NCBI GenBank assembly: GCA_017448985.1 | Contig: JAFSKL010000010.1 | Location: 20,250-84,249 of the forward strand | Direction of reading: 5' to 3' | DNA: 64,000 nt | Origin: Paludibacteraceae bacterium | GTDB lineage: Bacteria; Bacteroidota; Bacteroidia; Bacteroidales; Paludibacteraceae | Shown: in pieces, positions 299 to 34,116 of the stretch | Layout of the letters: every line of letters begins with the position of its first letter | Numbering within the stretch: the first letter of the stretch is position 1 | Notes under the pieces: model-generated | Seen by the model: the letters and a program-made list of their open reading frames with translations, nothing else | Told to the model about the DNA's origin: nothing | Databases searched by the model: none | Program-made: the position numbers and the translations under genes

Positions 299-1405
299 TT
301 ATTTCACAATACCCTTCTCCAAATATTCGGCAAGGTTAAAGTGTTCTCGTGTCACTTTATGCATATCGTGCTTTACCATCAACTCGACCAGCTCCTCGAA
401 ACTCGTCTTTTGCGGATTCCAGCCCAGTTCCCGTTTCGCCTTACTCGGATCACCCAACAAGTTCACCACATCCGTCGGCCGGTAGAAATCCGGACTCACA
501 GCAACAACAACATCACCCTCTTTAATTTTTAATTTTGAATTTTGAATTTTTAATTCCTCCACGATTCCTTTCTCTTCCACGCCTTTGCCTTCCCAGCGCA
601 ACTCAATACCGGCATGGTGGAAAGCCAACGTCGCGAACTCACGCACCGTATGCTGCACACCCGTTGCTATGACGAAATCTTCGGGCGTATCATGCTGCAG
701 AATGAGCCACATGCACTCCACATAATCCTTGGCATATCCCCAGTCGCGCAACGAATCCAGATTGCCCAAGTACAGGCACTCCTGCAAGCCTTGCGCAATA
801 CGCGCAGCCGCCAAGGTGATCTTACGCGTCACAAACGTCTCGCCGCGACGCTCCGACTCATGGTTAAAGAGGATACCGGAACAGCAGAACATGTTGTACG
901 CCTCGCGGTACTCCTTGATGATCCAATAGCCGTATAATTTAGCCACCGCATAAGGACTGTACGGGTGGAACGGCGTGGTCTCGCTTTGCGGCACTTCCTC
1001 CACCTTGCCGTAGAGTTCGCTCGTCGAGGCCTGGTAGATCTTGCATGTTTTCTCCAGATGATTCGTCCGAACCGCCTCCAGCACACGCAGCACACCTACC
1101 GCATCCACATCGGCCGTGAACTCCGGCGCATCGAAACTGACCTGCACATGACTCTGCGCCGCCAGATTGTATATCTCATCCGGTTGCACCTGTCCTACCA
1201 ACTTAACCAGCGACATCGAGTCGCTCATGTCCGCGTAATGCAAATGAAAATGCGGTTTTCCCTCCAAATGGGCGATCCGCTCGCGAAAATCCACCGAACT
1301 ACGGCGAATAATGCCGTGGACTTCATAACCTTTTTCCAACAAAAACTCCGCCAAATAGGAGCCATCCTGACCCGTAATTCCGGTGATTAGTGCTTTTTTA
1401 GCCAT
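299..1405 (-). CDS. gmd: GDP-mannose 4,6-dehydratase
   Basis: 368 aa. [37 protein letters not shown] and the YAVAKLY catalytic motif. Contains an in-frame heptamer array at 522-556. Confidence 0.95.
522..556. repeat. Heptamer array x5 inside gmd
   Basis: TTAATTT TTAATTT TGAATTT TGAATTT TTAATTC. Encodes [12 protein letters not shown] on the minus strand. Confidence 0.9.
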
Positions 1406-6445: not shown

Positions 6446-6470
6446 CACTCGATTTTGGTTTAATTGTATT

Positions 6471-9143: not shown

Positions 9144-10217
9144 ATGAGTTCAGATAAATTATATTTGCCGGGATTAAATGGAATACGAGCAGTAGCGGCA
9201 TTAACCGTATTGTTCGGCCATATGTGGACTCCGTTCGGCAATTGGGGCGTTTCGCCTTCATGGCATATTCCTTGGCCATCGGGACCGGTAACGACATTCT
9301 TCGTCATAAGCGGCTTCCTTATTACCTATCTCTTAATGAACGAGATTGGCAAAACGGACGATGTCAGTATTCCGAAGTTCTACATGCGTCGAATCCTACG
9401 AATTTGGCCGCTTTATTATGTTTATTTGGCTCTTGCCCTATTAGCTGTTTGGCTCTTTCGTGACGAAATTAACAATGCCGCGTGGTTTTATGCGTTTTTC
9501 TCCGGTAACATATCGCACGCTTTAGGAATCGGAATTATTCCGCTATTCCATTTCTGGAGTTTAGGCGTTGAAGAGCAGTATTACCTGTGGTATCCTTGGA
9601 TGGTAAAGTACAACAAGAAACGCGTGCTTACCTTTGTGTCTGTGTTGCTTGTATGTTGGTTCGGCGCAAAATTAGCCGCATATTTCTTTCTCGGCAAAGG
9701 TCTTATGTATCGTATCTTAGGCGTTACACAGTTTGATTGTATGATGTTAGGAGCGATAGGCGCAATTATGTACTACCGCAAAACAGAATGGTTTGTCAAA
9801 CTTTGTTCCAGTAGATTCGTGGCTATTGTGGCTTGGATTCTATTCTTCACATCCGGTCTGTACGCGAATTATATCCCGTCTCCGATACGCAACGAATATA
9901 TCGCGTTTGTTTCGTTATTTGTAATTATGTCTGGTCTGTTGCGCAAGCCGCTTTTAGAGAACCGGGTAATGAACTACTTAGGACAAATCTCATATGGCAT
10001 TTATGTAATCCATCCTTTGTTATTGTACATCCTTACGCGTCTCATACATCCGGCTGAATTCATGCAGAATGATGTGGCGTCTGTTGTGATTTTTGTTGCC
10101 ATAACTGCTCTCACAATAGGAATCGCGTCGCTATCGTACAAATACTTTGAAATGCCCTTCTTGCGAATAAAAGGCAAGTTTAGCGTAGTGCAGAGTACAA
10201 ATGCGAATGACAGATAA
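9144..10217 (+). CDS. Acyltransferase family 3 (integral-membrane O-acyltransferase)
   Basis: LPGLNGIRAVAALTVLFGH N-terminal motif and about 10 hydrophobic helices. Start set at ATG 9144. Confidence 0.8.
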   Translation: MSSDKLYLPGLNGIRAVAALTVLFGHMWTPFGNWGVSPSWHIPWPSGPVTTFFVISGFLITYLLMNEIGKTDDVSIPKFYMRRILRIWPLYYVYLALALLAVWLFRDEINNAAWFYAFFSGNISHALGIGIIPLFHFWSLGVEEQYYLWYPWMVKYNKKRVLTFVSVLLVCWFGAKLAAYFFLGKGLMYRILGVTQFDCMMLGAIGAIMYYRKTEWFVKLCSSRFVAIVAWILFFTSGLYANYIPSPIRNEYIAFVSLFVIMSGLLRKPLLENRVMNYLGQISYGIYVIHPLLLYILTRLIHPAEFMQNDVASVVIFVAITALTIGIASLSYKYFEMPFLRIKGKFSVVQSTNANDR

Positions 10218-10554
10218 ATCCCGCACCCGTCTGTTCACTCCTCGGTGCTATCCCACCGAGTATCTTTCTTCCTTTCCGCGGAATTGAATCCCGCTATTCT
10301 TCGTCTATTACGTCCAAATTGTATTTGGACATTTTCAGTGTCCCGTGCTCGCGATTTCTATGAGCGAGTCTCCCTGTGCCTGCATAGCTCCCTTTCGGGA
10401 TACCGGTGTCCCGCTATTCCGGGATCCCGCTTGTCTTCGTCTATTTCTCCGGCATTGAATGCCGGTCTCTTTCTATGTCCATTGTGTCGGATGCTATCCG
10501 ACATCAGCAATTTTTGCATTTTTTGCATTTTTCTTACATTTTTGCGCCCCAAAA

Positions 10555-10586
10555 TTTGCATATCTCAACATTTTTTTGTATCTTTG
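10555..10586 (+). promoter_or_regulatory. Orphan consensus promoter inside a 760-bp noncoding region
   Basis: TTTGCATATC, 20 nt spacer, TATCTTTG. No credible ORF follows for ~390 nt. Confidence 0.5.
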
Positions 10587-10668
10587 CACTCGATTTCAGA
10601 CAGAACCCCTCAACATCCATGTATTATATACAAAGTATATAATACTAACAAAAACGAAAGCAAAATTT

Positions 10669-10723
10669 AGTGCGTGATAAGTGCGTCGTAAGTGCGCGGT
10701 AAGTGCGCGGTAAGTACGAGATA
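10669..10723. repeat. 11-bp tandem array x5
   Basis: AGTGCGTGATA AGTGCGTCGTA AGTGCGCGGTA AGTGCGCGGTA AGTACGAGATA. Confidence 0.9.
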
Positions 10724-10734
10724 ATAGGGGTTGT

Positions 10735-10767
10735 CAGATACGCGTCAGGTATGCGTTAGGTACGCGT
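10735..10767. repeat. 11-bp tandem array x3
   Basis: CAGATACGCGT CAGGTATGCGT TAGGTACGCGT. Confidence 0.85.
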
Positions 10768-10918
10768 CTAGAACCCTTCAATATGCAAACATCAAAATTC
10801 CCGTTTCTATGCCCAACTCAAAGGCAAACCCAATCCTATCGCACCCAAAGACAAAGACGACAACTTCATCCGCGCCGCTTGATATTTTTAGATAATTTTG
10901 CGCTTTTTTCTCTTTTTA

Positions 10919-10981: not shown

Positions 10982-12793
10982 ATGAAGAATATACGGAATT
11001 TTTGTATCATTGCGCATATAGACCACGGCAAGAGTACGCTGGCGGACAGGATGTTAGAGTTGACGGGTACCGTCGATGTTCGCAGCATGGAAGCACAGGT
11101 GCTCGACGACATGGACCTGGAGAAAGAACGGGGCATCACGATAAAGAGCCATGCGATACAGATGAATTATAAGTATAGGGGTGACGGGTTACCGGTTACG
11201 GGTGACGGGATGTTCACTCTTAATCTCATCGATACTCCGGGGCATGTGGATTTCAGTTATGAAGTGAGCCGGAGTATAGCGGCTTGCGAGGGAGCGGTGT
11301 TAGTTGTAGATGCGACGCAAGGCGTTCAGGCGCAGACGATATCGAACCTGTACATGGCCATCGAGCACGACCTCGAGATCATTCCCGTGATCAACAAATG
11401 CGACATGGACAATGCGATGCCGGAGCGTGTGGAGGACGAGATAATAGACCTGTTGGGTTGCAAGCGCGAGGAGATACTGCGTTGTTCGGCGAAGACGGGC
11501 GAGGGCGTGACGGAGATATTAGATGCCATCGTGGAGCGTATCCCGGCACCGGTGGGCGACCCCGACGCACCGCTGCAATGCCTCGTCTTCGACTCTGTAT
11601 TCAACTCGTTCCGCGGTATCATAGCCTACTTCAAAGTGGTGAACGGGACGATGCACACGGGTGACCGCGTGCGGTTTGTGAACACGGGCAAGGAGTACGA
11701 CGCGGACGAGATAGGTATCCTCAAATTAGACATGAGCCCTCGCAAGGAGATAAGCGCCGGCAATGTGGGGTACATCATCTCGGGCATCAAGACCTCGACC
11801 GAGGTCAAAGTGGGCGACACGATCACGCATGTGGCGCGACCGTGCGAGGCGGCGATAGACGGTTTCGAAGAAGCCAAGCCGATGGTGTTCGCGGGCGTCT
11901 ATCCGATAGAGACGGAAGACTACGAGGACCTGCGGGCATCGTTAGAAAAGCTGCAGCTGAACGACGCGAGTCTGACGTTCCAGCCGGAGAGTTCGATGGC
12001 GTTGGGCTTCGGTTTCCGCTGCGGGTTCCTCGGGTTACTGCACATGGAGATAGTGCAGGAGCGTCTGGACCGCGAGTTCGACATGGACGTTATCACCACG
12101 GTGCCGAATGTGTCGTACAATGTCTATACCAAAGACGGCAACATGGTGGAGGTACACAACCCCGCGGGAATGCCGGACCTGACGGAGATAGACCGCATTG
12201 AGGAGCCGTACATCCGCGCGAGCGTCATCACCGTGGCCGATTACATAGGGCCGATCATGACGCTGTGTTTGGGCAAGCGCGGCGAACTGGTCAAGCAGGA
12301 GTACATCAGCGGTAACCGTATGGAGCTGCTGTTCGACATGCCGTTAGGCGAGATAGTGATCGATTTCTACGACAAGCTCAAGTCGATCAGCAAGGGCTAC
12401 GCGTCGTTCGACTGGCACATGAACGGCTTCCGTCCGTCCAACCTCGTCAAGCTGGACATCCTGCTGAACGGCGAGCAAGTGGACGCACTCTCTACCCTCA
12501 CCCATCGCGACAATGCTACGGACTTCGGCCGGCGCATGTGCGAGAAACTCAAAGAGTTGCTACCTCGCCAACAGTTCGACATAGCGATACAGGCGGCGAT
12601 AGGTGCGAAGATCATTGCGCGGGAGACCGTGAAGCAGGTGCGCAAGGATGTGTTGGCCAAGTGTTACGGCGGTGATGTGAGCCGTAAGCGCAAGCTGCTC
12701 GAGAAGCAGAAACGCGGCAAGAAGCGGATGAAACAAATAGGCAATGTGGAAGTGCCGCAAAAAGCCTTCCTCGCTGTTTTGAAACTGGATTAG
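10982..12793 (+). CDS. lepA: Translation elongation factor 4
   Basis: [33 protein letters not shown], and C-terminal [23 protein letters not shown]. In-frame heptamer array at 11179-11209. Confidence 0.95.
11179..11209. repeat. Heptamer array x4 inside lepA
   Basis: GGGTGAC GGGTTAC CGGTTAC GGGTGAC GGG. Encodes [10 protein letters not shown]. Confidence 0.85.
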
Positions 12794-12802: not shown

Positions 12803-12830
12803 AATGAATAATGATTAATGAATAATGAAT
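12803..12830. repeat. AATGAAT-family heptamer array x4 (left flank of the four-helix-bundle gene)
   Basis: AATGAAT AATGATT AATGAAT AATGAAT. Confidence 0.9.
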
Positions 12831-12847
12831 ATCTCGCTGAATGTAAC

Positions 12848-13237
12848 ATGGAAGAAACTAAAATATACAATTTAGGCATATTAGAAGATAAAACATATTC
12901 GTTTGCGCTACGAATCATCAAAGCACATAAATATCTAACAGACAAGAATGAATATATTCTCTCAAAACAACTCCTTCGTTCAGGAACTTCCATTGGGGCA
13001 AACTGTCGAGAGGCCACATTCGCTCAAAGTAAGCAAGACTTTGTTAACAAATTAAGTATAGCTTTAAAAGAGACAAACGAAAGTATCTATTGGATAGAAC
13101 TATTGCATGATTCCGGATTTATTACCGATGATAGCTTTGATTCCATTCATGCTGATGGCACAGAAATATTAAAACTATTAATCGCTATCATTAAAACATC
13201 AAAAAGTAATATCCAAAAAATTAAAGATATTCATTAA
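12848..13237 (+). CDS. Four-helix-bundle protein (23S rRNA intervening-sequence protein family)
   Basis: SIGANCREATFAQSKQDFVNKLSIALKETNESIYWIELL is the family signature. Very AT-rich. Flanked by inverted heptamer arrays. The longer start at 12818 lies inside the repeat. Confidence 0.8.
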   Translation: MEETKIYNLGILEDKTYSFALRIIKAHKYLTDKNEYILSKQLLRSGTSIGANCREATFAQSKQDFVNKLSIALKETNESIYWIELLHDSGFITDDSFDSIHADGTEILKLLIAIIKTSKSNIQKIKDIH

Positions 13238-13266
13238 TCATTATTAATTATTAATTATTCATTAAT
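13229..13266. repeat. Inverted AATGAAT-family array x5 (right flank of the four-helix-bundle gene)
   Basis: ATTCATT AATCATT ATTAATT ATTAATT ATTCATT AAT. This is the reverse complement of the left-flank family. Confidence 0.9.
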
Positions 13267-14574
13267 ATGTTAGAACATTTGATTCCGGCGTGGATGCTAA
13301 TCCCGTTTGTAGTGATGCTGCTATGCATCGCAGTGCTTCCGCTGATTCCTCATGTGGGCGAGTGGTGGGAGCATAATGTACACAAGCTGTATGTTTCGCT
13401 GATCCTCGGCGTGCCCGTAGGTTTCTGGCTGTGCGCACACGGCATGAGTCACGAGCTGATTCACCAGATGATCTTCGACTATGTGCCTTTCATCCTGCTG
13501 CTGATGGCGCTGTTTGTAACGACCGGCGGTATCTGTATCCGAGGTGACTTGAAAGCGACACCGCAGACTAACACGATCATCTTAGCTATCGGCTGGGTGC
13601 TGGCTTCGTTCATGGGAACGACCGGTGCAGCGATGCTGCTCATCCGTCTGCTGTTGGCAACCATCTCGCAACGCAAGTACAAAGTGCACACGGTCCTTTT
13701 CTTCATCGCCATCGTGGCTAACTGCGGCGGTCTGCTGTCTCCGCTCGGCGATCCTCCTTTGTTCCTGCTGTTCCAGAAAGGTACGCCGTTCATGTGGTGG
13801 CTTCAGAACATGCTTCCCGAATGGGCGCTGACAGGAGCTCTGCTTCTCGGTATCTACTTTGTGATCGATGTCTATTTCTACAAGAAAGAGCCGGTGGAGA
13901 ACATCATGGCCGATGTGCGCGAGAGCACCAAGATGCAGGCGACGGGTCTGATCAATATCTTCTGGCTGCTGTGCGTGGTGGCGAGCACGATGTTCATCAA
14001 CTCGACTTATATCCCTGCGATGGGTGGCGAACATGCACCATGGTACCTCAAACTGCTGCGCGAGTGGGTCTTCATCGCCATCATCGCCGGTTCGTGGCTG
14101 ACGACGAAGAAGGAAGTGCGGGTGAAGAACAACTACAGCTGGACGCCTATCCTCGAAGTAGCATGTGTCTTCTTAGGAATTTTCGCCACGATGACTCCTG
14201 CTCTGATGTTCCTGCAGCAGAACCCGCTGCCCGTCACGGCTCCGTGGCAGTTCGTCTATTGTACGGGTGCCCTCTCGGCGTTCCTGGACAATGCGCCTAC
14301 GGCCATGGTCTTCCATGCTACGGCTACCACTATCCCGTTAGCTGAAGGCGTAGAAGCGGTGGCAGGTATCGCACCGGAGTTCATGAAGGCTATCTCGATG
14401 GGTGCCGTGTTCTTCGGAGCGCTCACCTATATCGGTAACGGACCTAACTTCATGGTCAAGTCCATCGCCGAGCAGGAAGGAATCGATATGCCGTCGTTCT
14501 TCGGCTATATGATTAAGTTCAGCTTGATCATTCTCCTGCCTGTTTATATCATCGTTCAAATAATATTTATTTGA
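13267..14574 (+). CDS. Ion transporter of the ArsB/NhaD (citrate transporter-like) permease superfamily
   Basis: 435 aa, polytopic. GGLLSPLGDPPLFL and FLDNAPTA motifs are typical of NhaD-type Na+/H+ antiporters. Confidence 0.7.
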   Translation: MLEHLIPAWMLIPFVVMLLCIAVLPLIPHVGEWWEHNVHKLYVSLILGVPVGFWLCAHGMSHELIHQMIFDYVPFILLLMALFVTTGGICIRGDLKATPQTNTIILAIGWVLASFMGTTGAAMLLIRLLLATISQRKYKVHTVLFFIAIVANCGGLLSPLGDPPLFLLFQKGTPFMWWLQNMLPEWALTGALLLGIYFVIDVYFYKKEPVENIMADVRESTKMQATGLINIFWLLCVVASTMFINSTYIPAMGGEHAPWYLKLLREWVFIAIIAGSWLTTKKEVRVKNNYSWTPILEVACVFLGIFATMTPALMFLQQNPLPVTAPWQFVYCTGALSAFLDNAPTAMVFHATATTIPLAEGVEAVAGIAPEFMKAISMGAVFFGALTYIGNGPNFMVKSIAEQEGIDMPSFFGYMIKFSLIILLPVYIIVQIIFI

Positions 14575-14578
14575 AAAA

Positions 14579-14606
14579 GGACAATGGAAAATGGATAATG
14601 TACAAT
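14579..14606. repeat. Heptamer array x4 (left arm)
   Basis: GGACAAT GGAAAAT GGATAAT GTACAAT. Confidence 0.9.
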
Positions 14607-14613
14607 TAATATT

Positions 14614-14641
14614 TCATTTTCAATTTTCAATTTTCAATTTG
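14614..14641. repeat. Heptamer array x4 in opposite orientation (right arm)
   Basis: TCATTTT CAATTTT CAATTTT CAATTTG. Confidence 0.9.
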
Positions 14642-14642
14642 T

Positions 14643-15293
14643 ATGAGTTTCATAGATAACATCATCACGTGGTACTCGGCGCATATGAGCTATGCGTCGA
14701 TTACTGCTTTGATGGCTGTGGAAAGTTCGTTCATTCCTTTCCCGAGCGAAGTGGTGATTCCTCCTGCAGCGTTCGTAGCGGGTCAGCCGGAGAGCGTGCT
14801 GTGCACAACGGGCAACTACCCTATTGATGTGCTGCTGATCGTGCTCTTCGGCACGCTTGGTGCGATAATAGGCGCCGTGATCAACTACGGCCTGAGTGTA
14901 TGGCTCGGACGAATCATCATCTATAAGTTCGCGGATTCACGCCTTGGGCACCTGTGCCTGCTCTCGAGCGAGAAGATAGAGAAAGCGGAGGCGTACTTCC
15001 GTGAGAAAGGCAATGTATCGACCTTCATCGGACGATTCATCCCGGGAATCCGGCAGCTCATATCTATCCCTGCGGGCCTGAGCCGTATGAACTTCGGCGC
15101 GTTCCTCTGGTGGACCTTCCTCGGAGCGTTCATCTGGAATTGCATCCTGGCGGCGCTGGGCTACTTAGCTGCCGGACAAATGGACCTGATAAAAGAATAT
15201 AGCCACGAACTATCCGTAGCTATACTCGTCATTCTCGGCTTGGCAATCGTGTTCTTCGTTGTCAAGCGCTTGCTAAAAGCTAAAAAAGATTAG
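14643..15293 (+). CDS. DedA family membrane protein
   Basis: ESSFIPFPSEVVIPPA and FIGRFIPGIRQLISIPAG DedA/SNARE-associated motifs. Confidence 0.8.
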   Translation: MSFIDNIITWYSAHMSYASITALMAVESSFIPFPSEVVIPPAAFVAGQPESVLCTTGNYPIDVLLIVLFGTLGAIIGAVINYGLSVWLGRIIIYKFADSRLGHLCLLSSEKIEKAEAYFREKGNVSTFIGRFIPGIRQLISIPAGLSRMNFGAFLWWTFLGAFIWNCILAALGYLAAGQMDLIKEYSHELSVAILVILGLAIVFFVVKRLLKAKKD

Positions 15294-17591: not shown

Positions 17592-17627
17592 ATTCAATTT
17601 TCCATTTTTCCATTTTCCATTTTCCTA
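17592..17627. repeat. Heptamer array x5 filling the ftsA-ftsZ spacer
   Basis: ATTCAAT TTTCCAT TTTTCCAT TTTCCAT TTTCCTA. The last unit holds the ftsA stop. Confidence 0.85.
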
Positions 17628-18927: not shown

Positions 18928-19683
18928 TTAATATCTTCCTATTACCTGTCCTTTGAATCGGACATCGAGTTCATAATAATGCTTGTCCTTGGTAGCCTCT
19001 GCGCTGTTCTCGAGGAAGGTCCTCAGCTTGGCGAGTTTGGCTTCGTATCCGCGCATCGGGCCTACCAACACGCGTTCCTCTTTCACTTTACCGTTCTCGT
19101 CATTGAGATAGAGCAGCACGCGTTGCGGGGACTGCACATTGAGGTGATGAATACGTTTGCGCCAATAGGCGTTGTCCTGCAACCATTCGGCAAAATCCGC
19201 CATCTGCGTAGCCGCCATCTGCGGTCCTATGTTCCCCGTTACGACGAGCACGCTGTCCCTGACCAGCGCTCGCACCTGCATCACACGGCGGTCGGTGTCT
19301 ATCAGATAAGTCTCCGTCGGCGTCTTTACCCGCACCAGCGGCACACGCTGCGTCAGGCGTATCTTCATCTCGTTGCGCGGCGTGAGGTAGCACTCCGCTG
19401 TCCGCACCATCGGATGATGCTGAATCGTGTTCTCAATGCGCTGCAGCGAAACGGCGTTTATCGGACGCCCCACAGGGTATAAGTCCTCCGCGCGCAACAG
19501 CTGATTCAACTCATTTTCAGTCAGGTACATACGTTCGGCGCGGTCCTTGATGATATAGGTCAGCGACACGCACGAGTCGGTCTTGGGCTTCATCCTGTAG
19601 CCCCACAACACTGCCGCGATCAGCAACGACGCCATGATGCCGATACCAATGCTTTGCCATACTATTTTTGCGGTTCTACTCAT
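18928..19683 (-). CDS. ftsQ: Cell division protein FtsQ
   Basis: Single N-terminal TM helix followed by a POTRA-like region. Located between murC and ftsA. Confidence 0.8.
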   Translation of the reverse strand: MSRTAKIVWQSIGIGIMASLLIAAVLWGYRMKPKTDSCVSLTYIIKDRAERMYLTENELNQLLRAEDLYPVGRPINAVSLQRIENTIQHHPMVRTAECYLTPRNEMKIRLTQRVPLVRVKTPTETYLIDTDRRVMQVRALVRDSVLVVTGNIGPQMAATQMADFAEWLQDNAYWRKRIHHLNVQSPQRVLLYLNDENGKVKEERVLVGPMRGYEAKLAKLRTFLENSAEATKDKHYYELDVRFKGQVIGRY

Positions 19684-19691
19684 GCGAAGCG

Positions 19692-19719
19692 TTCAGTATT
19701 CAGTATTCAGCATTCAGAC
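19692..19719. repeat. Heptamer array x4 spanning the murC stop and the murC-ftsQ spacer
   Basis: TTCAGTA TTCAGTA TTCAGCA TTCAGAC. Encodes the MurC tail SLNAEY-stop. Confidence 0.9.
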
Positions 19720-21100
19720 TTTTAGTTATCTCGGGCACGAGGCGGTCGATGTCGCCGGCGCCTACAGTCAGTATGACCACGGGCTGCTGACTAAGCGCTA
19801 TGCGTCTCTTCAGCTCCGGCACCAGGTCCTGCTTCTCCACTAATTTCCCATTGTCCATTGTCCATTGTCCATTCGCAAGCAGTATCTCGCTGGTGACACC
19901 CGGTATCGGCTCTTCCCGCGCCGGATAGATAGGCAGCAAGAGGCACTCGTCCAGCGTTGCCAACACACGCGTGAATCCTTCTTTGAAGTCGCGTGTACGC
20001 GTGTAGAGGTGTGGTTGGAAGACTCCTATCAGTCGTCGTTCGGGGAACAGCTTGCGGATCGAATCGATGGCCGTGGCTATCTCTTGCGGGTGATGGGCAT
20101 AATCGTCTATGTACACGATCTTCGGCGTGTGCACATGGATGTTAAACCGGCGCTGGACACCCTTAAAAGTTGAGAGTTGAGAGTTGAAAGTGGAAAGATT
20201 CTTTCCCACCAGATAAGCCACCGCCATGGCTGCCACTGCATTCTCTATGTTCACCCATACGGGCACGCCGAGACGGATGTCTTTCACCGTCTCACGCGGT
20301 GTGACGAAGTCAAACACAATCGTTCCTTCACCCACCCGGATGTTCGTGGCATAGAAATCCGGGCCATTTTCCATTTTCCCTTGTCCATTGTCCATTCCGT
20401 AAGTATAGCACTTCACTCCCGGCTGCAGCCTGGGCACCAGCGCAATGCCGTGCTTCATCACCAGCGCACCGGTGATGAGACTCGTATAATGGGCAAACGC
20501 TTCGCGATAGGCTTCCGGCGTGCCGTAGATATCCAAATGGTCTGGATCGACGGCCGTGACCACGGAGATATACGGTGTCAGCTGATGGAACGAGCGGTCG
20601 TACTCGTCGGCCTCCACCACCACAAACGGACTCTCAGGCTCAATGAGCACATTCGTGCCGTAGTTCATGCTGATGCCGCCGAGGAACGCGTTGACGGGCT
20701 GCAACAGATGAGCAATCATCGTGCTCGTCGTTGTCTTGCCGTGTGTCCCCGCCACGCAGAGCGCCTGCTTCCGGCGAGTCACATCACCCAACACCTCGGC
20801 ACGCTTCTTGATCTGAAATCCGTGCTCGCGAAAATACCGATACAAAAGACTATCCTCCGGCACAGCCGGTGTACGGACCACAAGCGTATTGTCTGAATGA
20901 AAAATGGACAATGGACAATGGAAAATGGAGGGATCGTCCTCATAGGTGATCTCAATGCCCTCCGCCTCCAGCTCCCCGGTCAGTTCCGACGGCGTGCGGT
21001 CATAACCCGACACATGATAGCCCTGACGCTGAAAATACCGCGCCAAGGCACTCATTCCGATGCCACCGATGCCCAAGAAAAAGATATTTTTCGCCTTCAT
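19700..21100 (-). CDS. murC: UDP-N-acetylmuramate--L-alanine ligase
   Basis: MKAKNIFFLGIGGIGMSALA and GTHGKTTTSTM motifs. Start set at ATG 21100 because the -7 box (21116-21123) lies in the longer ORF. Carries four in-frame heptamer arrays. Confidence 0.92.
   Translation of the reverse strand: MKAKNIFFLGIGGIGMSALARYFQRQGYHVSGYDRTPSELTGELEAEGIEITYEDDPSIFHCPLSIFHSDNTLVVRTPAVPEDSLLYRYFREHGFQIKKRAEVLGDVTRRKQALCVAGTHGKTTTSTMIAHLLQPVNAFLGGISMNYGTNVLIEPESPFVVVEADEYDRSFHQLTPYISVVTAVDPDHLDIYGTPEAYREAFAHYTSLITGALVMKHGIALVPRLQPGVKCYTYGMDNGQGKMENGPDFYATNIRVGEGTIVFDFVTPRETVKDIRLGVPVWVNIENAVAAMAVAYLVGKNLSTFNSQLSTFKGVQRRFNIHVHTPKIVYIDDYAHHPQEIATAIDSIRKLFPERRLIGVFQPHLYTRTRDFKEGFTRVLATLDECLLLPIYPAREEPIPGVTSEILLANGQWTMDNGKLVEKQDLVPELKRRIALSQQPVVILTVGAGDIDRLVPEITKSLNAEY
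19844..19871. repeat. Heptamer array x4 inside murC
   Basis: TTTCCCA TTGTCCA TTGTCCA TTGTCCA. Encodes NGQWTMDNGK. Confidence 0.9.
20169..20196. repeat. Heptamer array x4 inside murC
   Basis: GTTGAGA GTTGAGA GTTGAAA GTGGAAA. Encodes LSTFNSQLST. Confidence 0.9.
20366..20397. repeat. Heptamer array x4-5 inside murC
   Basis: ATTTTCC ATTTTCC CTTGTCC ATTGTCC ATTCC. Encodes MDNGQGKMENG. Confidence 0.9.
20899..20926. repeat. Heptamer array x4 inside murC, opposite orientation
   Basis: GAAAAAT GGACAAT GGACAAT GGAAAAT. Encodes FHCPLSIFH on the minus strand. Confidence 0.9.
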
Positions 21101-21115
21101 TTCACAAAAATCGCG

Positions 21116-21146
21116 CAAAGTTACAAAAAAAATTGCATATATCAAA
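21116..21146 (-). promoter_or_regulatory. murC-ftsQAZ promoter (half of a divergent cassette)
   Basis: Minus strand TAACTTTG with TTTG about 20 nt upstream. Confidence 0.6.
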
Positions 21147-21163
21147 ATATTTTTGTAATTTTG
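21132..21163 (+). promoter_or_regulatory. Promoter of the PagL-like gene (half of a divergent cassette)
   Basis: ATTG, 20 nt spacer, TAATTTTG. Confidence 0.55.
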
Positions 21164-21172
21164 TGCCCTGAA

Positions 21173-22486
21173 ATGAAAAAAATCGTTTTGTTGATAGGAT
21201 TATTGGCCTGTTTGCAGGTATTTGCCGAACCTCGGCGCCATTACGAGCTGACTTATCGTGTAAGCGCATACGGCGGCGCGATGCTGCCAGATGGCAAGGT
21301 GGATCAGTGGATCGAGCGTCCCGTGTTGGGCGGTTCGTTTTCGGTGGAGTTCCTGCCTACGGGTCGTTGGAAATGCCTGCAGCAATGGAACAACGCGTCG
21401 ATAGGTGTCGGCGTGAGCTATCTCAACTTGGGTAATGACAATTTCTTGGGCTCGGCTTTTGCGGCCTACGGCTATATGAATCAGCCTTTCTACAACGGCA
21501 CCCATTTCCGCATCGGCGTGCGTCCGGCTGTAGGTATAGCCGCGGTGACAAAGACCTATGCCAACACGCTGCCTGCTGAATACAAGTCCTACTCCATTGC
21601 GCAGAAAGATGGCAAGCTGGTCGCCAACTGGTCGATGGGCTCCATCCTCAATGCCTATCTGGCGATGGAAATGTACATGGACTTCCCCATCAAAAGCGGT
21701 TGGGAGATCACGCTCAACGGAGGCTGGCGGCATATCAGTAACGGCTCTTTCATGCACCCGAACGCGGGTTACAACATTTTCGGTGCGGAGTTGGGCGTCC
21801 GCTATCATCCGACCGATGCGGAGCCTCTTCGTCCCTCAGCCCCTCGGACGCGTGTGCCACGCAAGCTGTATGACGATGTGATCAAGAAATGGGCGATCGA
21901 GCTCAGCGCTACAGGCGGCGCCAAGCAGAACTACTACAAGGATAACATCAACGGCCATCTCTTCTTCGGTGCCGCTTCGGTCAAGTTGGCTGCCTATTGG
22001 GTGCCGATCTCCATCTTCCGCGTCGGTGCCGGTTTGGACGCTTTCTACGACGGCTATTATGCGGCGGTGAACGACGAGTACAAGGACGAGAACCCCGAAG
22101 GCACGCCCATCACCTATTTCGGCAAGACCTATCTGCGGACGAGCGAGGTGAAGAACTGCTTCCGCGTAGGTTTCAGTCTGCAGCCGGAGTTCATCATCGG
22201 CAAACTGACCGCAGGTATTCATGTGGGCGTTTATCTGTTTGACCCCGTCAAGAACCTCGAGCCGTACAACGAAGCCAAAGCGGCTTACGAAGAAGGCAAG
22301 TCGCTGGACAGAGGTGTTTTCTATAGTTACGATTTTACGAAAGCGAGCAATTATCAGGACGGCTGGTGCTATATGCAGTTCGTGCTCAAGTACCGTGTGC
22401 TGCAGCACCTGTTCGTACAGTTGGGTCTGAAGACCCACGGCGTCCGTGCCGAGTTCATCGATGCCGGCTTCGGTGTGGCTTTCTAA
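21173..22486 (+). CDS. Outer-membrane acyloxyacyl hydrolase (PagL-like lipid A deacylase family) with extended C-terminal beta region
   Basis: MKKIVLLIGLLACLQVFA signal peptide. GGWRHISNGSFMHPNAGYNIFGAELGVRYH matches the PagL-type H/S/N motif as I recall it. Ends in the beta-barrel-like GFGVAF. Confidence 0.6.
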   Translation: MKKIVLLIGLLACLQVFAEPRRHYELTYRVSAYGGAMLPDGKVDQWIERPVLGGSFSVEFLPTGRWKCLQQWNNASIGVGVSYLNLGNDNFLGSAFAAYGYMNQPFYNGTHFRIGVRPAVGIAAVTKTYANTLPAEYKSYSIAQKDGKLVANWSMGSILNAYLAMEMYMDFPIKSGWEITLNGGWRHISNGSFMHPNAGYNIFGAELGVRYHPTDAEPLRPSAPRTRVPRKLYDDVIKKWAIELSATGGAKQNYYKDNINGHLFFGAASVKLAAYWVPISIFRVGAGLDAFYDGYYAAVNDEYKDENPEGTPITYFGKTYLRTSEVKNCFRVGFSLQPEFIIGKLTAGIHVGVYLFDPVKNLEPYNEAKAAYEEGKSLDRGVFYSYDFTKASNYQDGWCYMQFVLKYRVLQHLFVQLGLKTHGVRAEFIDAGFGVAF

Positions 22487-24866: not shown

Positions 24867-26156
24867 ATGTTTTTGTATTTTCTATTGATACGAATCGCGG
24901 CGCTGTTCGGGCACAAGAAAGCCCGTGCGTTGGTGGAAGGCCAGAAGTCAGCATTCAGCTTTGAGCCGTCAGTATTCAGCGGCTGCATATGGATTCATGC
25001 GGCTTCGGCAGGCGAGTTCGAGCAGTCGAGGACGCTGATTGAGAGGATAAAGGACGCTTCGCTACAGGACGGCGCAAGCGCCTACAAAGAAAAGGTTGTT
25101 GTCACATTCTTTAGTCCGTCGGGATACAAGGCACATAAGGGGAACGAATTGTTGGACGGCGTGCTGTACCTGCCCTTTGCCACGCGGCGCAATGCGCGCA
25201 AGTTCATCGAGGCCCTGCAACCGAAAATGGCCATCTTCGTCAAATACGAGTTCTGGCCCGCCTATATACGCGAACTGAAGAAACGCGATATCCCCATTTA
25301 CAGCATCTCGGCTATCTTCCGTCCGAAGCAGTATTTCTTCCGGTGGTGGGGCAAAGGTCAACTGCGCATACTGCGTGCTTTCACGCATATCTTCGTGCAG
25401 GACGAGGCCTCGCGACGGCTGTTGGCGGAGCACGGCGTGCATAACGCAAGCGTGGCAGGAGACACGCGATTTGACAGAGTCAAACAGACCGCTTGCGCTG
25501 TAAGACCGGCTTCGCCTGTAGGATTGCAGCCCATAGCAGAGTTTGCGGAAGGGTGCAAGAGGGTGTTGGTGGCAGGAAGCACATGGCCGGAGGATGAGGC
25601 GCTATTAGCGCAATTAAAAATTAAAAATGAAGAATTAAAAATTATTCTTGTGCCGCACGAGATAAACGAGGCACATCTGCATTTCATTTTCAATCTGTTC
25701 AAGGGACGGATGGTGAAGTACAGTTCAATTGAAAATGGACAAAGGAAAATGGAAAATGGGATTGTTAGCCGGCGGAACATACTGCGGCACGCGGAGGTGA
25801 TGGTGGTGGATACGATCGGTCTGTTGAGTTCGATCTATCAGTTCGGGCAGGTGGCTTATGTAGGCGGCGGCTTCGGCGAAGGGATTCACAACACCATCGA
25901 AGCGGCGGTGTATGGTGTGCCGGTGATTTTCGGGCCTAACTACCAACGATTTCGCGAGGCACAAGGACTGATTGATGCCGGTGCAGGCAAGAGCGTGCGC
26001 AAATACAATGAGTTTGAAGAGGCGGTGGAGACAGCTTTTGCGCAGCATGAAGACTTAGGCGCCAAAGCGGCGGAGTATGTGGAGAGCGAGTTGGGAGCGA
26101 CTGCAAAAATCTGCGAGCAGATTTTTGCAAATGGAAAATGGAAAATGGAAAATTGA
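24867..26156 (+). CDS. waaA: 3-deoxy-D-manno-octulosonic acid (Kdo) transferase
   Basis: IWIHAASAGEFEQSRTLIERI and a C-terminal GGGFGEGIHNTIEAAVYGVPVIFGP motif. Start set downstream of promoter 24801-24832. Three heptamer arrays, the last of which provides the C-terminus and stop. Confidence 0.85.
   Translation: MFLYFLLIRIAALFGHKKARALVEGQKSAFSFEPSVFSGCIWIHAASAGEFEQSRTLIERIKDASLQDGASAYKEKVVVTFFSPSGYKAHKGNELLDGVLYLPFATRRNARKFIEALQPKMAIFVKYEFWPAYIRELKKRDIPIYSISAIFRPKQYFFRWWGKGQLRILRAFTHIFVQDEASRRLLAEHGVHNASVAGDTRFDRVKQTACAVRPASPVGLQPIAEFAEGCKRVLVAGSTWPEDEALLAQLKIKNEELKIILVPHEINEAHLHFIFNLFKGRMVKYSSIENGQRKMENGIVSRRNILRHAEVMVVDTIGLLSSIYQFGQVAYVGGGFGEGIHNTIEAAVYGVPVIFGPNYQRFREAQGLIDAGAGKSVRKYNEFEEAVETAFAQHEDLGAKAAEYVESELGATAKICEQIFANGKWKMEN
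25612..25646. repeat. Heptamer array x5 inside waaA
   Basis: AATTAAA AATTAAA AATGAAG AATTAAA AATTATT. Encodes LKIKNEELKII. Confidence 0.9.
25723..25760. repeat. Heptamer array x4-5 inside waaA
   Basis: TGAAAAT GGACAAA GGAAAAT GGAAAAT GGG. Encodes IENGQRKMENG. Confidence 0.85.
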
Positions 26157-26175
26157 AAATTGAAAATTTAGAATT
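26126..26175. repeat. Heptamer array x7 forming the waaA C-terminus, its stop and the whole waaA-hisS spacer
   Basis: GGAAAAT x3, TGAAAAT x2, TTAGAAT. The stop TGA arises at the first TGAAAAT unit. The hisS ATG follows 1 nt after the array. Confidence 0.95.
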
Positions 26176-27495
26176 ATGGCACAGAAACCAAGTATACCCA
26201 AAGGGACGCGCGATTTCGGGCAAGTGGAAATGGCTCGGCGCAATTATATCTTTGACACCATCAAAGGGGTGTTTCAGTTGTACGGCTTTCAGCAGATCGA
26301 GACGCCTGCGATGGAGAACCTGAGCACGCTGATGGGCAAGTACGGCGAGGAAGGCGACAAGTTACTTTTCCGTATCCAGAACAGCGGCGAGAAAGCGAAC
26401 CTGACGCCGGAGAAAGGTCTGCGTTATGACCTGACCGTTCCGTTTGCGCGCTATGTGGTGCAGCACCGCGAGGAGATCAGTTTTCCCTTCAAGCGCTTCC
26501 AGATTCAGCCCGTTTGGCGTGCCGACCGACCGCAGAAAGGCCGTTACCGCGAATTCTACCAGTGCGATGTGGATGTGATCGGTTCCAATTCGCTGGTCGG
26601 AGAGTTGGAGCTGGTGCAGATAGTAGAGGAGGTGTACCGCCGTTTGGGCATCAATGTGTGTCTGCACATCAACAATCGCAAGATTTTAGCAGGTATAGCC
26701 GAAGTGATCGGTGAGCCCGACAAGATCATCGACATCACCGTAGCCATCGACAAACTGGACAAGATAGGCGTCGATGCCGTGAATGCGGAATTGGCGGAAC
26801 GGGGACTGAGCGAGAAAGCTACTGAGGCACTGCAGCCGATATTGAATCAGGAGTCAGGAATCAAGATTCAAGACAAAATAGTTCAATTGAAGTCGTTCTT
26901 GGCGACGAGCGAAGTGGGACTGAAAGGCATTGAGGAACTGGAGACCTTGTTCGGACTGATAGAGGCGACAAGTGTGAAGTTGAACATTGAATTGGACCTG
27001 TGCCTTGCGCGCGGACTCAATTATTACACGGGCGCGATATTCGAGGTCAAGGCCTTGGACGCACAGATCGGTTCGATCACCGGTGGCGGTCGTTACGACA
27101 ACTTGACGGGTATCTTCGGCTTGCCGGAAGTGTCGGGCGTCGGCATCTCGTTCGGTGCTGACCGCATCTACGATGTGCTGACCGAGTTGGACCTGTTCCC
27201 CAAAGAGCTGCAATCGGCCACACAAGTGCTCTTTGCCGCGTTCGGACAGGACGAGTTGCACTATGCGCTGCGTTGGGCCAACGGGCTGCGGGCAGCAGGG
27301 ATAGCCGTGGAGGTCTATCCCGAAGCGACGAAGATGAAGAAGCAGATGGGTTATGCCGACGCCAAGCAGATTCCGTTCGTGGCCATCGTAGGCGGCGACG
27401 AGATGGCGCAAGGCAAAGTGATGCTCAAAAATATGAGTTCCGGCGAACAAAAACTCGTCGGACCCGACGAACTGATAGAAATGGCAAAATCTTAA
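26176..27495 (+). CDS. hisS: Histidine--tRNA ligase
   Basis: [15 protein letters not shown]..., [25 protein letters not shown] and GGGRYDNL class II motifs. In-frame heptamer array at 26844-26885. Confidence 0.95.
26844..26885. repeat. Degenerate heptamer array x6 inside hisS
   Basis: GAATCAG GAGTCAG GAATCAA GATTCAA GACAAAA TAGTTCA. Encodes [13 protein letters not shown]. Confidence 0.8.
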
Positions 27496-27604
27496 TAATC
27501 GTACATTTTTTCAGGTAGCCTTTAACCACGGTTTACCCACGGTTTAACCACGGTATTACCCCTTGTAGTGCATAGAGGGGCAAAATCTTAAAAATAGTAA
27601 ACTT
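27487..27604 (+). repeat. ~118-bp dispersed intergenic element, copy A (hisS / DUF1599 spacer)
   Basis: Shares three blocks with the reverse complement of 50521-50637: 24/24, about 45/45 and 25/25 identical nt, separated by two short divergent patches. Contains the 11-mer array TTAACCACGGT TTACCCACGGT TTAACCACGGT (27522-27554). Confidence 0.9.
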
Positions 27605-29354: not shown

Positions 29355-30107
29355 ATGGCAAGAATTAAAATGGTGGCAGGTAACTGGAAAATGAACAAGA
29401 ACCTGCAGGAAGGTGTAGCATTGGCTACCGAGTTGAAAGAGGCTGTGAAAGCCCCGAAGTGTGCCGTTGTTATCGGTACTCCTTTTATCCACTTGGCTAC
29501 CGTAGCCGAGTTGCTCAAAGGCTCGCCGATTAAGGTGGCGGCTGAGAACTGCGCGGACCACGAGAAAGGTGCGTACACCGGTGAGGTGAGTGCCGAGATG
29601 GTGAAATCGACCGGCGCCGAGTACGTCATCTTGGGTCACTCGGAGCGTCGTCAATACTACGCCGAGAGCTACGAGATGCTGGCTCAGAAAGTGCGTCTGG
29701 CTTTGGCTAACGGGCTGAAGGTGATTTTCTGCATCGGCGAGGTGAAAGAGGAGCGCGAGGCTGGTCGTCAGAACGAAGTGGTGAAAGCCCAACTCGAAGG
29801 TTCGGTCTTCGGTCTGAGCGCCGATGAGTGGAAGCAGATCGTGCTGGCTTACGAACCCGTTTGGGCAATCGGTACAGGTCTGACCGCTACGCCGGAGCAG
29901 GCACAGGAGATACACGCGTTCATCCGTTCGCTCGTGGCTGAGAAATTCGGCAAAGAGGCAGCGGAGGACACCACTATTCTCTACGGCGGCAGCTGCAACG
30001 AGAAGAACGCAGCCGAACTGTTCGCTTGTCCGGACATCGACGGCGGCCTGATCGGTGGTGCCGCACTCGTGGCAGAGAAGTTCTTAGCTATCATCGCTGC
30101 GCGATAA
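29355..30107 (+). CDS. tpiA: Triosephosphate isomerase
   Basis: [27 protein letters not shown] and YGGS motifs. Confidence 0.97.
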
Positions 30108-30145
30108 CTAGTCTACTAGTCAACTAGTCTACTAGTCAACTAGAA
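30106..30145. repeat. 8-mer array x5 after tpiA
   Basis: AACTAGTC TACTAGTC AACTAGTC TACTAGTC AACTAGAA. ACTAGT palindromes recur every 8 nt. Confidence 0.9.
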
Positions 30146-30152: not shown

Positions 30153-30677
30153 ATGGCACTAATCAGAACGATCAATAGAGACGGCGAGATCCTAACCCCG
30201 CATATCGCTGACGACGTGTTCATGGCGGAAAACGCGACCGTGGTCGGCGATGTGACGGTGGGCGAAGGAACGAGCTTGTGGTTTAATGCGGTGCTGCGAG
30301 GCGATGTGAACACAATCGTCATCGGCCGTCATTGCAACATCCAGGACGGCGCTGTGCTGCACACCCTCTACCGGAAATCGACCATCCGTCTGGGCGACTA
30401 TGTGTCGGTAGGACACAACGTAACTATTCACGGTGCGGATGTGGACGACTACGCGCTTATCGGAATGGGCGCTACCCTGCTCGACGATGCCCATGTGGGA
30501 GAAGGTGCGATCGTGGCTGCCAATGCACTGGTGCTCAAAGGCACGCAGATAGGGCCTCACGAGATATGGGGCGGCGTGCCGGCGAAATTCATCAAGAAAG
30601 CCGATCCCGCACAGACCGAAGAGATAAACAAGAAAATAGCCAATAACTACGCAATGTACGCTTCGTGGTACCAATAG
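30153..30677 (+). CDS. Gamma carbonic anhydrase family protein (left-handed beta-helix, hexapeptide repeats)
   Basis: VGDVTVGEGTSLWFNAVLRGD..IGRHCNIQDGAVLH..VGHNVTIHG pattern. Confidence 0.85.
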   Translation: MALIRTINRDGEILTPHIADDVFMAENATVVGDVTVGEGTSLWFNAVLRGDVNTIVIGRHCNIQDGAVLHTLYRKSTIRLGDYVSVGHNVTIHGADVDDYALIGMGATLLDDAHVGEGAIVAANALVLKGTQIGPHEIWGGVPAKFIKKADPAQTEEINKKIANNYAMYASWYQ

Positions 30678-30691
30678 GTGACTTCGTCACG

Positions 30692-30716
30692 TTAAATGGT
30701 TAAATAGTTAAAATGG
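30692..30716. repeat. Degenerate 8-mer array x3 upstream of pyrH
   Basis: TTAAATGG TTAAATAG TTAAAATGG. Confidence 0.6.
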
Positions 30717-30748
30717 TTTTTATTACATAAAAACGTTAAATTGTTACT

Positions 30749-31453
30749 ATGTACAAACGCATTCTTTTGAAACTTTCCGGCGAGAGCCTTGCCGGAGAAA
30801 GCAAGCAAGGTATCGACACCGACCGTTTGGCGCAATATGCCGAGCAGGTGAAACGTATCGCGCAACGCGGTGTGCAGATAGGTATCGTCATCGGCGGCGG
30901 AAATATCTTCCGTGGTCTGAGCGGTGCCCAACGGGGTTTCGACCGCGTCAAAGGTGACCAGATGGGGATGTTAGCCACCGTCATCAACGCCTTGGCCTTA
31001 CAGTCGGCGCTGGAGGCTATCGGTCAGCCTGTCCGTGTTCTGACCTCCATCCGTATGGAGCCTGTCGGCGATTTCTACAGTCCTGCCAAAGCCATACGGC
31101 TGTTGGAGCGAGGCAATGTGGTCATTCTCGCCGGCGGCACGGGTGCACCCTACTTCACCACGGACACCGGTAGCAGTCTGCGGGCACTCGAGATCAAAGC
31201 CGACATCATGCTCAAAGGTACGCGCGTCGACGGCATCTACACCGCTGATCCGGAGAAGGACCCGACAGCCACCAAGTTCGACGAGATCACCTACGACGAG
31301 ATCATCCGCCGCGGACTCAAAGTGATGGATCAGACAGCTACCGTCATGTGCAAAGAGAACAAGATGCCCATCTATGTCTTCAACATGGACCAACTCGGCA
31401 ACCTCGAAAAAGTGATTAACGGAGAGAAAATCGGAACTCTCGTAAAACCCTGA
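30749..31453 (+). CDS. pyrH: UMP kinase
   Basis: [15 protein letters not shown] and GGGNIFRG motifs. Confidence 0.95.
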
Positions 31454-34076: not shown

Positions 34077-34116
34077 ACTAGTTGACTAGCGGACTAGTTG
34101 ACTAGCCGACTAAAGA
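34077..34116. repeat. 8-mer array x5 in the korA-korB spacer and korA 3' end
   Basis: ACTAGTTG ACTAGCGG ACTAGTTG ACTAGCCG ACTAAAGA. Same ACTAG core as 30106-30145. Confidence 0.9.

Follow-up and report, generated by a model that had tools for sequence, protein, structure and literature searches.

Tandem repeats built of seven-nucleotide units have been described in several bacteria. TAACTGA repeats occur in marine Beggiatoaceae, in cyanobacteria and in five Bacteroidetes including Paludibacter propionicigenes (MacGregor 2015, PMC4679880), as sets of two to six copies that are mostly intergenic and lie a few nucleotides upstream of a start codon; in the forward orientation the repeat provides stops in all frames and often overlaps the upstream stop codon (PMC4679880). 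A few stop-free 'reverse' copies lie inside open reading frames (ORFs), mostly at protein ends, with MurG named as a case (PMC4679880). Related heptamers seldom, if ever, occur as repeats in the Beggiatoa genome, only two TAACTGA sets are reported for the cultured Paludibacter, and the same study proposes a role in translation and gives the mechanism of spreading as unknown (PMC4679880). The GGGAATC repeats of Xanthomonas and the GGGGA(T/C)T repeats of Nostoc, described together with cyanobacterial heptanucleotide repeats that include those of Calothrix PCC7601 (Rehm et al. 2015, PMC4692102), favour about four units and positions between co-directional ORFs, no more than 50 bp from a start or stop codon, and occupy the same junctions in related strains with extensive variation in length and sequence; polymerase slippage was proposed as the source of the heptamer excess (PMC4692102). 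The present report concerns heptamer arrays inside and beside murC in a 64,000-nt stretch of DNA from a Paludibacteraceae bacterium (assembly GCA_017448985.1, contig JAFSKL010000010.1, positions 20,250 to 84,249 of the forward strand). This whole stretch is hereafter called the window, and coordinates are counted from its first nucleotide. The murC arrays are not a peculiarity of that gene but belong to a genome-wide and clade-wide repeat family, of which, with a probability of about 0.65, they are tolerated, translated local copies.

The murC arrays would best be filed with the known heptamer repeats. Like the TAACTGA repeats, the arrays of the window consist of tandem 7-nt units in few copies, lie at gene junctions and carry stops in all frames of the sense strand; the array at the murC-ftsQ junction, with ATACTGA units, is a close relative of the TAACTGA type, and TAACTGA itself serves as the unit in one relative (P0002) and at window 55539-55561. 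Like the Xanthomonas and Nostoc repeats, they form a genome-specific heptamer family with about four units per array, a preference for junctions and variation at conserved junctions. Unlike TAACTGA, the dominant units are AATGGAA, AATTGAA, AATGGAC and their relatives, a set more diverse than a single TAACTGA or GGGAATC consensus, and arrays recur at orthologous sites with a different unit or orientation. Unlike the Xanthomonas and Nostoc units, those of the window are AT-rich, lack G-tracts and have no G-quadruplex potential. The main departure lies in location: published heptamer repeats are rare in coding sequence or sit at its edge, whereas coding regions hold about half of the arrays here, deep inside conserved housekeeping genes and not at protein ends.

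For the tolerance of such sequences by proteins, the closest parallel is the Rickettsia palindromic elements (RPE), ~150-bp palindromic elements resembling MITEs (miniature transposable elements with inverted repeats) and encoding a conserved peptide, which lie in frame in metabolic genes and are translated, apparently compatibly with fold and function (PMC10969869). Like RPE, the arrays form a dispersed repeat family in frame inside many unrelated conserved genes. They are, however, direct tandem repeats of 26-37 nt without inverted termini, occur in both orientations and encode no conserved peptide; they qualify neither as RPE-like elements nor as MITEs. Contingency-locus repeats, for example those of Haemophilus influenzae, are long, pure, copy-number-variable tracts in surface or restriction-modification genes. 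Such tracts change by slipped-strand mispairing, the process proposed for the arrays too. The arrays resemble them further as short tandem repeats within genes, with a unit length not divisible by three, but their tracts are short, mostly imperfect and located in essential cytoplasmic enzymes. A literature search on Paludibacteraceae and tandem repeats found no description of such arrays. The present case differs by its diverse, AT-rich units, by operon junctions that, where examined, are nearly saturated, by the deep intragenic share and by the recurrent protein sites.

murC heads a murC-ftsQ-ftsA-ftsZ block, that is, a cell-wall and division cluster, and a single 466-codon minus-strand ORF spans all five period-7 arrays called there with Tandem Repeats Finder (TRF):

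19700-21100, minus strand: murC coding sequence, 466 aa, ATG at 21098-21100, TGA stop at 19700-19702.
20896-20929, minus strand: site 1, sense units TCCATTT and TCCATTG, the antisense orientation of the AATGGAC-type family; residues 57-69, PSIFHCPLSIFHS, including SIFHCPLSIFH (TRF array 20903-20929, AATGGAC, 3.9 copies, opposite orientation).
20364-20396, minus strand: site 2, sense units AATGGAC, AAGGGAA and AATGGAA; residues 235-246, GMDNGQGKMENG, including MDNGQGKMENG (TRF array 20364-20396, 4.7 copies).
20163-20197, minus strand: site 3, sense units CTTTCAA and CTCTCAA; residues 299-314, GKNLSTFNSQLSTFKG, including NLSTFNSQLSTF (TRF array 20166-20197, 4.6 copies).
19843-19876, minus strand: site 4, sense AATGGAC in about 4 copies; residues 408-419, LANGQWTMDNGK, including ANGQWTMDN (TRF array 19848-19873, CCATTGT, 3.7 copies, 100% matches).
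19688-19717, minus strand: murC-ftsQ junction array, sense CTGAATG CTGAATA CTGAATA CTGAACG, encoding the C-terminal LNAEY, residues 462-466 (TRF array 19692-19717, TTCAGTA, 3.7 copies).
19681-19683, minus strand: ftsQ start codon, 16 nt past the murC stop; the ORF, 18928-19683, begins MSRTAKIV.

The original prediction, made from the sequence alone, had placed four in-frame heptamer arrays in murC, in both orientations, and had the last residues of the protein encoded by a TTCAGTA array. All of this was borne out: TRF recovered the four arrays within a few bases of where they had been placed, site 1 is opposite in orientation to site 4, and the TTCAGTA array specifies the final LNAEY together with the stop codon. 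The TGA at 19700-19702 thus lies inside that array, which ends 8 nt ahead of the ftsQ start and has stops in all three sense frames; the same array is present in the sister strain L002 (at 11383-11412), and the same junction of P0002 reads CTGACAA CTGACAA CTGATAA CTGAACG. The murC arrays are not assembly artefacts, since they recur in six contigs from six different metagenome assemblies in ENA. On the plus strand, an ORF at 20897-22486 lies opposite the 5' part of murC; its start is mostly spurious, the likely gene beginning at about 21174 (MKKIVLLIGLLACL, resembling a signal peptide), and the homologue of this ORF beside P0002 gives a weak match to PagL.

The window protein is MurC, the UDP-N-acetylmuramate--L-alanine ligase, by the Pfam domains of its homologues, its PDB matches and the superposition of its model. 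PF01225, PF08245 and PF02875 are present on the 97%-identical homologue P0001 and on nearly all of the 120 listed homologues, these assignments being taken from the precomputed annotation of the homologues and not from a scan of the window protein. The top PDB matches are all MurC (E ~1e-60), and the AlphaFold model, with a mean predicted local distance difference test score (pLDDT) of 86.8, superposes on the MurC proteins of E. coli, Y. pestis and H. influenzae with template modelling scores of 0.81-0.84. As had been predicted, the GIGGIGMS and GTHGKTTT motifs are intact, and every column invariant among 28 homologues is preserved. The closest database protein (97% identical) is assigned by its annotation to a Paludibacteraceae metagenome-assembled genome, and the related loci derive from forestomach assemblies of sheep, goat, yak and buffalo.

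To place the arrays in the protein, the four sites were compared by codon alignment with array-free outgroups (L017-L022), with solved MurC sequences and with the structure model, and their position in the fold was judged from predicted secondary structure and pLDDT. Site 1 takes the place of a native variable segment, at +2 aa relative to the outgroups, in a coil between two beta strands (pLDDT ~72). Site 2 (+8 aa) is the only clear insertion of the four and lies in a beta-hairpin loop (pLDDT ~74). Site 3 involves no net change in length, aligns without gaps to P. aeruginosa MurC and contains a confidently predicted helix (residues 302-310, pLDDT ~93). Site 4 (+2 aa) falls in a native variable linker modelled as coil (pLDDT ~66); most members of the clade have a 9-aa deletion there (the 'ML-GG' form), relative to which the window carries a clean 27-nt insertion. 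By these alignments and the model, the murC arrays would comprise one insertion, two near length-neutral linker replacements and one re-encoded helix. The prediction of four 7-10-residue insertions in surface loops is thus not borne out as worded: relative to the outgroups, site 2 is a loop insertion, sites 1 and 4 are linker replacements and site 3 is a predicted helix. The array segments are not conserved parts of MurC; distant relatives have ordinary non-repetitive DNA at these positions.

Length-preserving replacement was considered as a general rule and dropped, because the net changes are mixed: MurC sites 1, 3 and 4, the Gmd site and the first PheT site stand at 0 to +2 aa, and MurC site 2, GcvT, LepA, MutY and the second PheT site at +5 to +9 aa. 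A test for a local seed showed GGAC or GGAT in array-free orthologues opposite the TGGAC of the array, a match indistinguishable from chance given seven rotations and several positions.

Period-7 arrays are strongly over-represented throughout the window. Strict arrays, counted separately from the TRF calls against 20 shuffles, number 20 in the window and 0.0 in the shuffles, and exact lag-7 runs of at least 9 number 30 where 0.1 are expected. Strict arrays of periods 8 and 11 number 2 each, as against 0 in shuffles; counts for periods 5, 6, 9 and 10 are not raised in the window. TRF lists 30 period-7 arrays, 14 at gene junctions and ~16 well inside long ORFs, 147-1584 nt from the ORF ends. 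Copy numbers range from 3 to 8, mostly 4-5, and the usual length is 26-37 nt whatever the unit; most tracts are imperfect (88-95% matches), the site 4 array being perfect at 3.7 copies. The genome has 52% G+C and the heptamer units are AT-rich. Nearly all ORFs that host an intragenic array are conserved housekeeping genes, an M20 peptidase gene among them, and roughly a fifth of the genes in the window have an array translated within them.

The units are related to each other. With rotation and strand allowed, 26 of the 30 consensus units are joined by single-base steps, in a network that includes the three AATGGAC-type murC arrays, the CTTTCAA array and the CTGAATA array, with a consensus near AATGGAA/AATTGAA/AATGGAC; the mean pairwise unit distance is 2.24, compared with 2.73 ± 0.03 in composition-matched shuffles (z ~ -14). 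The heptamer arrays therefore form one genome-specific unit family. Intragenic arrays outside murC include the following, and identical array peptides recur in unrelated enzymes:

521-555, minus strand: Gmd array, in frame, AATGGAA-type family, +1 aa relative to E. coli Gmd.
4665-4697, plus strand: GcvT array, in frame, +8 aa.
11179-11209, plus strand: LepA array, in frame, +7 aa, with a GC-rich unit outside the main family.
25612-25644 and 25727-25759, plus strand: two KdtA arrays, in frame.
40616-40646 (+2 aa) and 41052-41082 (+5 aa), plus strand: two PheT arrays, in frame.
51887-51918, minus strand: array in a carboxylase/OadA-like gene, in frame.
63775-63809, plus strand: MutY array, in frame, TMDNGQWTMDN, +7 to +9 aa relative to solved MutY.

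mutY, a host of such an array, is itself a DNA repair glycosylase gene.

The way in which these arrays avoid stop codons suggests that they are read by ribosomes. Six intragenic arrays (in Gmd, GcvT, LepA, KdtA, PheT and ORF 44989) have a consensus unit that, in perfect repetition, would bring a stop into every frame, and in all six a variant unit stands exactly at the sole in-frame would-be stop position, the changes being TAA to TCA, TAA to GAA (twice), TGA to TTA (twice) and TAA to TAC. The murC arrays are free of in-frame stops, and in three of the four the units are stop-free in both orientations. Such editing is what is expected if the arrays are generated by a DNA process blind to the reading frame, with selection afterwards preserving an open gene. 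By this pattern, the intragenic arrays are probably translated and under purifying selection to maintain the reading frame. Most intragenic copies lie in the A/G-rich sense, which yields hydrophilic peptides rich in E, N, G, K, Q and D, and their orientation may also be filtered.

The sequences of the peptides are not conserved. Homologues of MurC at 70-84% identity have array-like low-complexity peptides at these four sites, besides two or three further ones, with units that differ from one homologue to the next, and some have nothing there. At site 1 the T/C-rich orientation is found in the window, L007, L009 and L015, and the A/G-rich orientation in L010, L012, L014, P0002 and P0012. Since drift of the unit cannot flip its orientation, the site was filled more than once or its alleles were exchanged; the two orientations encode unrelated peptides (SIFHCPL versus ENGKLKI). 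Likewise, the Gmd site among homologues of 85-100% identity shows native sequence, a deletion or at least six different array peptides. The lengths of these homologues of Gmd (encoded at 299-1411) range from 356 to 407 aa, a spread that stems partly from this one hypervariable site and in much of its remainder from N-terminal extensions resembling miscalled starts; in one homologue, P0127, a stretch of 45 aa is duplicated internally, which may be an artefact of assembly. That selection on the protein has made the array peptides adaptive in MurC, for instance as flexible linkers or as new surfaces for interaction, would agree with the filling of the same four sites in many relatives, with the enrichment of murC for arrays over its neighbours and with the regular helix predicted at site 3. 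It is nevertheless highly improbable, being largely refuted by the lack of sequence conservation: a sister strain ~98-99% identical in DNA has an unrelated peptide at site 2, some relatives have no array peptide at all, opposite orientations give unrelated residues, and the same peptides turn up in unrelated enzymes. I infer that MurC tolerates the array peptides and does not need them, i.e. that they have no function there.

The internal structure of the arrays points to turnover of their units. Adjacent units are identical in 57 of 125 cases, compared with 39 ± 3.8 in permutations, and none of 5000 permutations reached the observed value; the typical order of units within an array is AABB, which would be the signature of local unit duplication and loss. 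Site 1 of L015 is longer by exactly 21 nt, that is, by three units, with the frame kept. As 7 is not a multiple of three, slippage by a single unit would shift the frame, and the arrays might be contingency tracts through which murC is reversibly switched off in a subpopulation. The local turnover of units and the perfect 3.7-copy tract of site 4 would suit such phase variation. MurC is, on the other hand, presumably essential, and its OFF state would be lethal. The tracts are short (4-5 units) and mostly imperfect, the length differences seen between lineages are all in-frame, and arrays are also present in many unrelated housekeeping genes. No copy-number variation of the murC arrays was seen in six sister contigs, a set retrieved by exact protein identity and hence blind to frameshifts. 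Phase variation of murC thus has very little probability.

Comparison with close strains, which had been proposed as a check for the loss of individual inserts, revealed exchange instead. In a sister strain ~1.4% divergent from the window, the site 2 array of murC is swapped for a period-8 array, CTCGAGAC, and the arrays of sites 1, 3 and 4 are retained with at most one base of difference. The repeat tracts at two gene junctions (14560-14654 and 30672-30769) also carry other units in that strain. At the former, the CitMHS/VTT spacer, two heptamer arrays are oppositely oriented and the spacer between them differs as well; such pairs could form imperfect hairpins. At the latter, the intergenic tract is replaced by other short tandem repeats. 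In another strain, 3.0% divergent over an 8.3-kb stretch, the Gmd array is swapped, and the other arrays of that stretch show neither an indel nor a cluster of differences.

The swaps are found in locally divergent DNA. The flanks of the swapped Gmd array diverge by 11-14% over ~200 nt on each side, as against 3.0% overall, and one flank of the swapped murC site 2 diverges by 3.0%, as against 0.3-1.2% in the rest of the gene. Moreover, array alleles are distributed against overall gene identity: the site 2 allele of the window, including its imperfect CAAGGGA unit, is common to L007 (77% identical), and that of the sister strain is common to P0002 (84.5% identical to the window). Because the flanks have diverged and the alleles are shared with distant lineages, imported recombination tracts explain the swaps more simply, and rapid in-situ rewriting between near-identical strains, which had been considered, was dropped. 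The simplest reading would be that the array alleles are old polymorphisms which homologous recombination has carried from lineage to lineage, without rewriting in place.

The opposite orientations within one mRNA had led to the suggestion that the arrays could pair over a long range. Site 1 would indeed form duplexes of -46 to -52 kcal/mol with site 4 and of -45 kcal/mol with site 2, against a background median of -13, so that pairing over 0.5-1 kb is thermodynamically possible in this species and might control translation or stability of the murC mRNA. Such a role at the RNA level is very unlikely. The best duplex that the site 1 segment can form in 15 other species amounts to only -21 to -36 kcal/mol; sites 1 and 4 have the same orientation in P0012, site 4 is missing from many relatives, the site 2 partner has given way to another array in the sister strain, and complementarity is not retained by compensating changes from one strain or species to another. 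Translating ribosomes would, besides, unwind a long-range duplex. Conserved long-range pairing was accordingly rejected, as the strong duplexes of this species are not kept in the others, and the complementarity of the murC arrays is best read as a by-product of one unit present in both orientations.

The main habitat of the family is the spacer between co-directional genes, near stop and start codons. In the sister strain L002, for which gene calls are available, 10 of 14 co-directional junctions have an array; upstream edges lie -27 to +10 nt from the preceding stop codon and downstream edges -29 to +14 nt from the start codon that follows. Of the 12 junction arrays, 9 bring stops into every one of the three sense frames. 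Two further junction arrays of the window illustrate this arrangement:

17593-17625, minus strand: ftsA-ftsZ junction array, sense GGAAAAT in about 5 copies, with a 6-nt difference between sister contigs.
26125-26168, plus strand: kdtA-hisS junction array, which includes the stop codon of kdtA and adjoins the start codon of hisS.

A small gene of the 23S rRNA-intervening-sequence/four-helix-bundle family (12803-13264; PF05635 at 12815-13237) is flanked by inverted heptamer arrays at 12803-12831 and 13228-13264, its start and stop codons lying in or beside them.

Repeats of other periods were also seen at junctions. Arrays of period 8 occupy gene junctions at 30106-30143, 34077-34112 and 59990-60014 in the window and, in related loci, at 958-994 of L002, 1224-1254 of L011 and 10638-10670 of L014. 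The period-8 units AACTAGTC/TACTAGTC are found at two loci of the window on opposite DNA strands, in the same orientation to transcription and with stops in all frames, and a period-8 GAATTAGN array is present in the window and in two other species. The 11-mer TTTAACCACGG arrays were tried as a case of the same phenomenon and set apart, as they form part of a longer dispersed element of ~110 nt. This element has two copies, at 27486-27600 (plus strand) and 50537-50640 (minus strand), both in intergenic spacers and oriented alike relative to the flanking genes, with a three-unit TTTAACCACGG array between shared flanks (AAATCTTAATAATCGTACATTTTT ... GGTATTACCCCTTGT..AGAGGGGCAAAATCTTAAAAAT). Two adjacent 11-mer arrays (10669-10724 and 10733-10768) lie within ~0.9 kb of sequence (10007-10895) that has no counterpart in L002. 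Rfam gave no match at gathering score and ARAGORN none anywhere in the window.

High array density is confined to the rumen Paludibacteraceae loci L001-L015 and is near zero in ~70 other Bacteroidota loci. Two unrelated Bacteroidota are sporadic exceptions with several heptamer arrays of other units: L041 (5506-6495, NIOZ-UU56), whose murC carries an array at a different position (6470-6495), and L062 (3366-12605, SGB_5831). Their distribution suggests independent occurrences.

Arrays so distributed might be the work of a dedicated mechanism: an enzyme (polymerase, reverse transcriptase or recombinase) filling patches of ~30 nt with heptamers copied from a template, or template switching from an array at one locus to an array at another, the intragenic arrays then being off-target products and not the outcome of ordinary local slippage. 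The membership of 26 of 30 units in one family across unrelated loci would fit such a mechanism, as would the similar array length of ~26-37 nt whatever the unit, the near-zero change in length at MurC sites 1, 3 and 4 and at the Gmd site, the two orientations at one orthologous site, and the dense occurrence in one clade with sporadic cases in two unrelated lineages. Yet the order of the units in blocks is what ordinary slippage would give, the swaps between close strains lie in locally divergent sequence and are explicable by recombination without rewriting, site 4 reads as a plain insertion when set beside its proximate 'GG' relatives, and the unit family could stem from a shared stop/start junction context or from selection for a bound motif. 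No candidate enzyme turned up, no search having been aimed at one. On balance a dedicated mechanism is distinctly unlikely. Also unlikely is the joint claim that, in this rumen Paludibacteraceae lineage, a process specific to the sequence family copies or writes ~30-nt heptamer patches as a standard intercistronic element and repeatedly overwrites tolerant segments of essential proteins, in some cases at unchanged length, and in which the junction patches would give all-frame termination and an unstructured leader for re-initiation independent of a Shine-Dalgarno sequence.

The preferred reading remains that the murC arrays are tolerated, translated local copies of a lineage-specific heptamer repeat family, and the following course of events can be proposed. 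The family mostly occupies intercistronic spacers, with an array at or over the upstream stop codon and ending 0-14 nt away from the start codon that follows. Shine-Dalgarno sequences are little used by Bacteroidota. This low use, the position of the junction copies and the proposal made for TAACTGA (PMC4679880) suggest that these copies may serve translation. Copies would also arise or land inside coding sequence, and those that survive in genes would be the ones that keep the frame, bring in no in-frame stop and fall in a segment of the host protein that tolerates change, which in MurC would be three coils and one helix. There they would be translated into low-complexity peptides without sequence conservation. 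Slipped-strand mispairing would make and remodel the arrays, as the block structure and the 21-nt step suggest: units would be duplicated or lost locally, length would change in in-frame steps (the 21-nt case being one), and whole arrays would at times be deleted. Array alleles would, finally, be exchanged between strains through homologous recombination.

Several observations weigh against this account. Simple local slippage does not explain why unrelated loci have a unit family in common, why either orientation can occupy one site across species, or how array units came to encode MurC site 3 and the Gmd site with a net change of 0 or +1 aa. In the window and in P0012 (75.7% identical) the site 4 insertion has the same boundaries, and the closer relatives P0002 and L007 lack it, a distribution that requires transfer or repeated exact loss. 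Lastly, murC carries 4 of the ~16 intragenic arrays where ~0.3-0.4 would be expected (P ~1e-3 by a Poisson estimate, before correction for having picked murC), and this enrichment could mean that there is something specific to murC.

What makes the finding valuable is the phenomenon that it exposes across the genome and the clade, the ideas specific to murC (loop insertions and long-range pairing) being correct in part at most. Heptamer repeats have been described as intergenic or protein-peripheral, with their origin and function unsettled; here they are also found deep in MurC, PheT, LepA, Gmd and MutY. Because the AT-rich arrays of the window keep the preference for 4-5 units, the G-quadruplex account of that preference, given for Xanthomonas, is not general. 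In practical terms, the arrays make conserved marker proteins from rumen metagenome-assembled genomes vary more in length and create allele swaps that mimic hypervariable regions, and they may cause frameshift calls and assembly breaks. For the biology of the clade, they amount to a natural experiment on which segments of essential enzymes accept an arbitrary low-complexity sequence of 9-12 residues, one in which selection is seen editing single bases to remove in-frame stops. Should a writing process of the kind considered above exist after all, protein evolution in this clade would be driven in part by a repeat generator acting at the DNA level.

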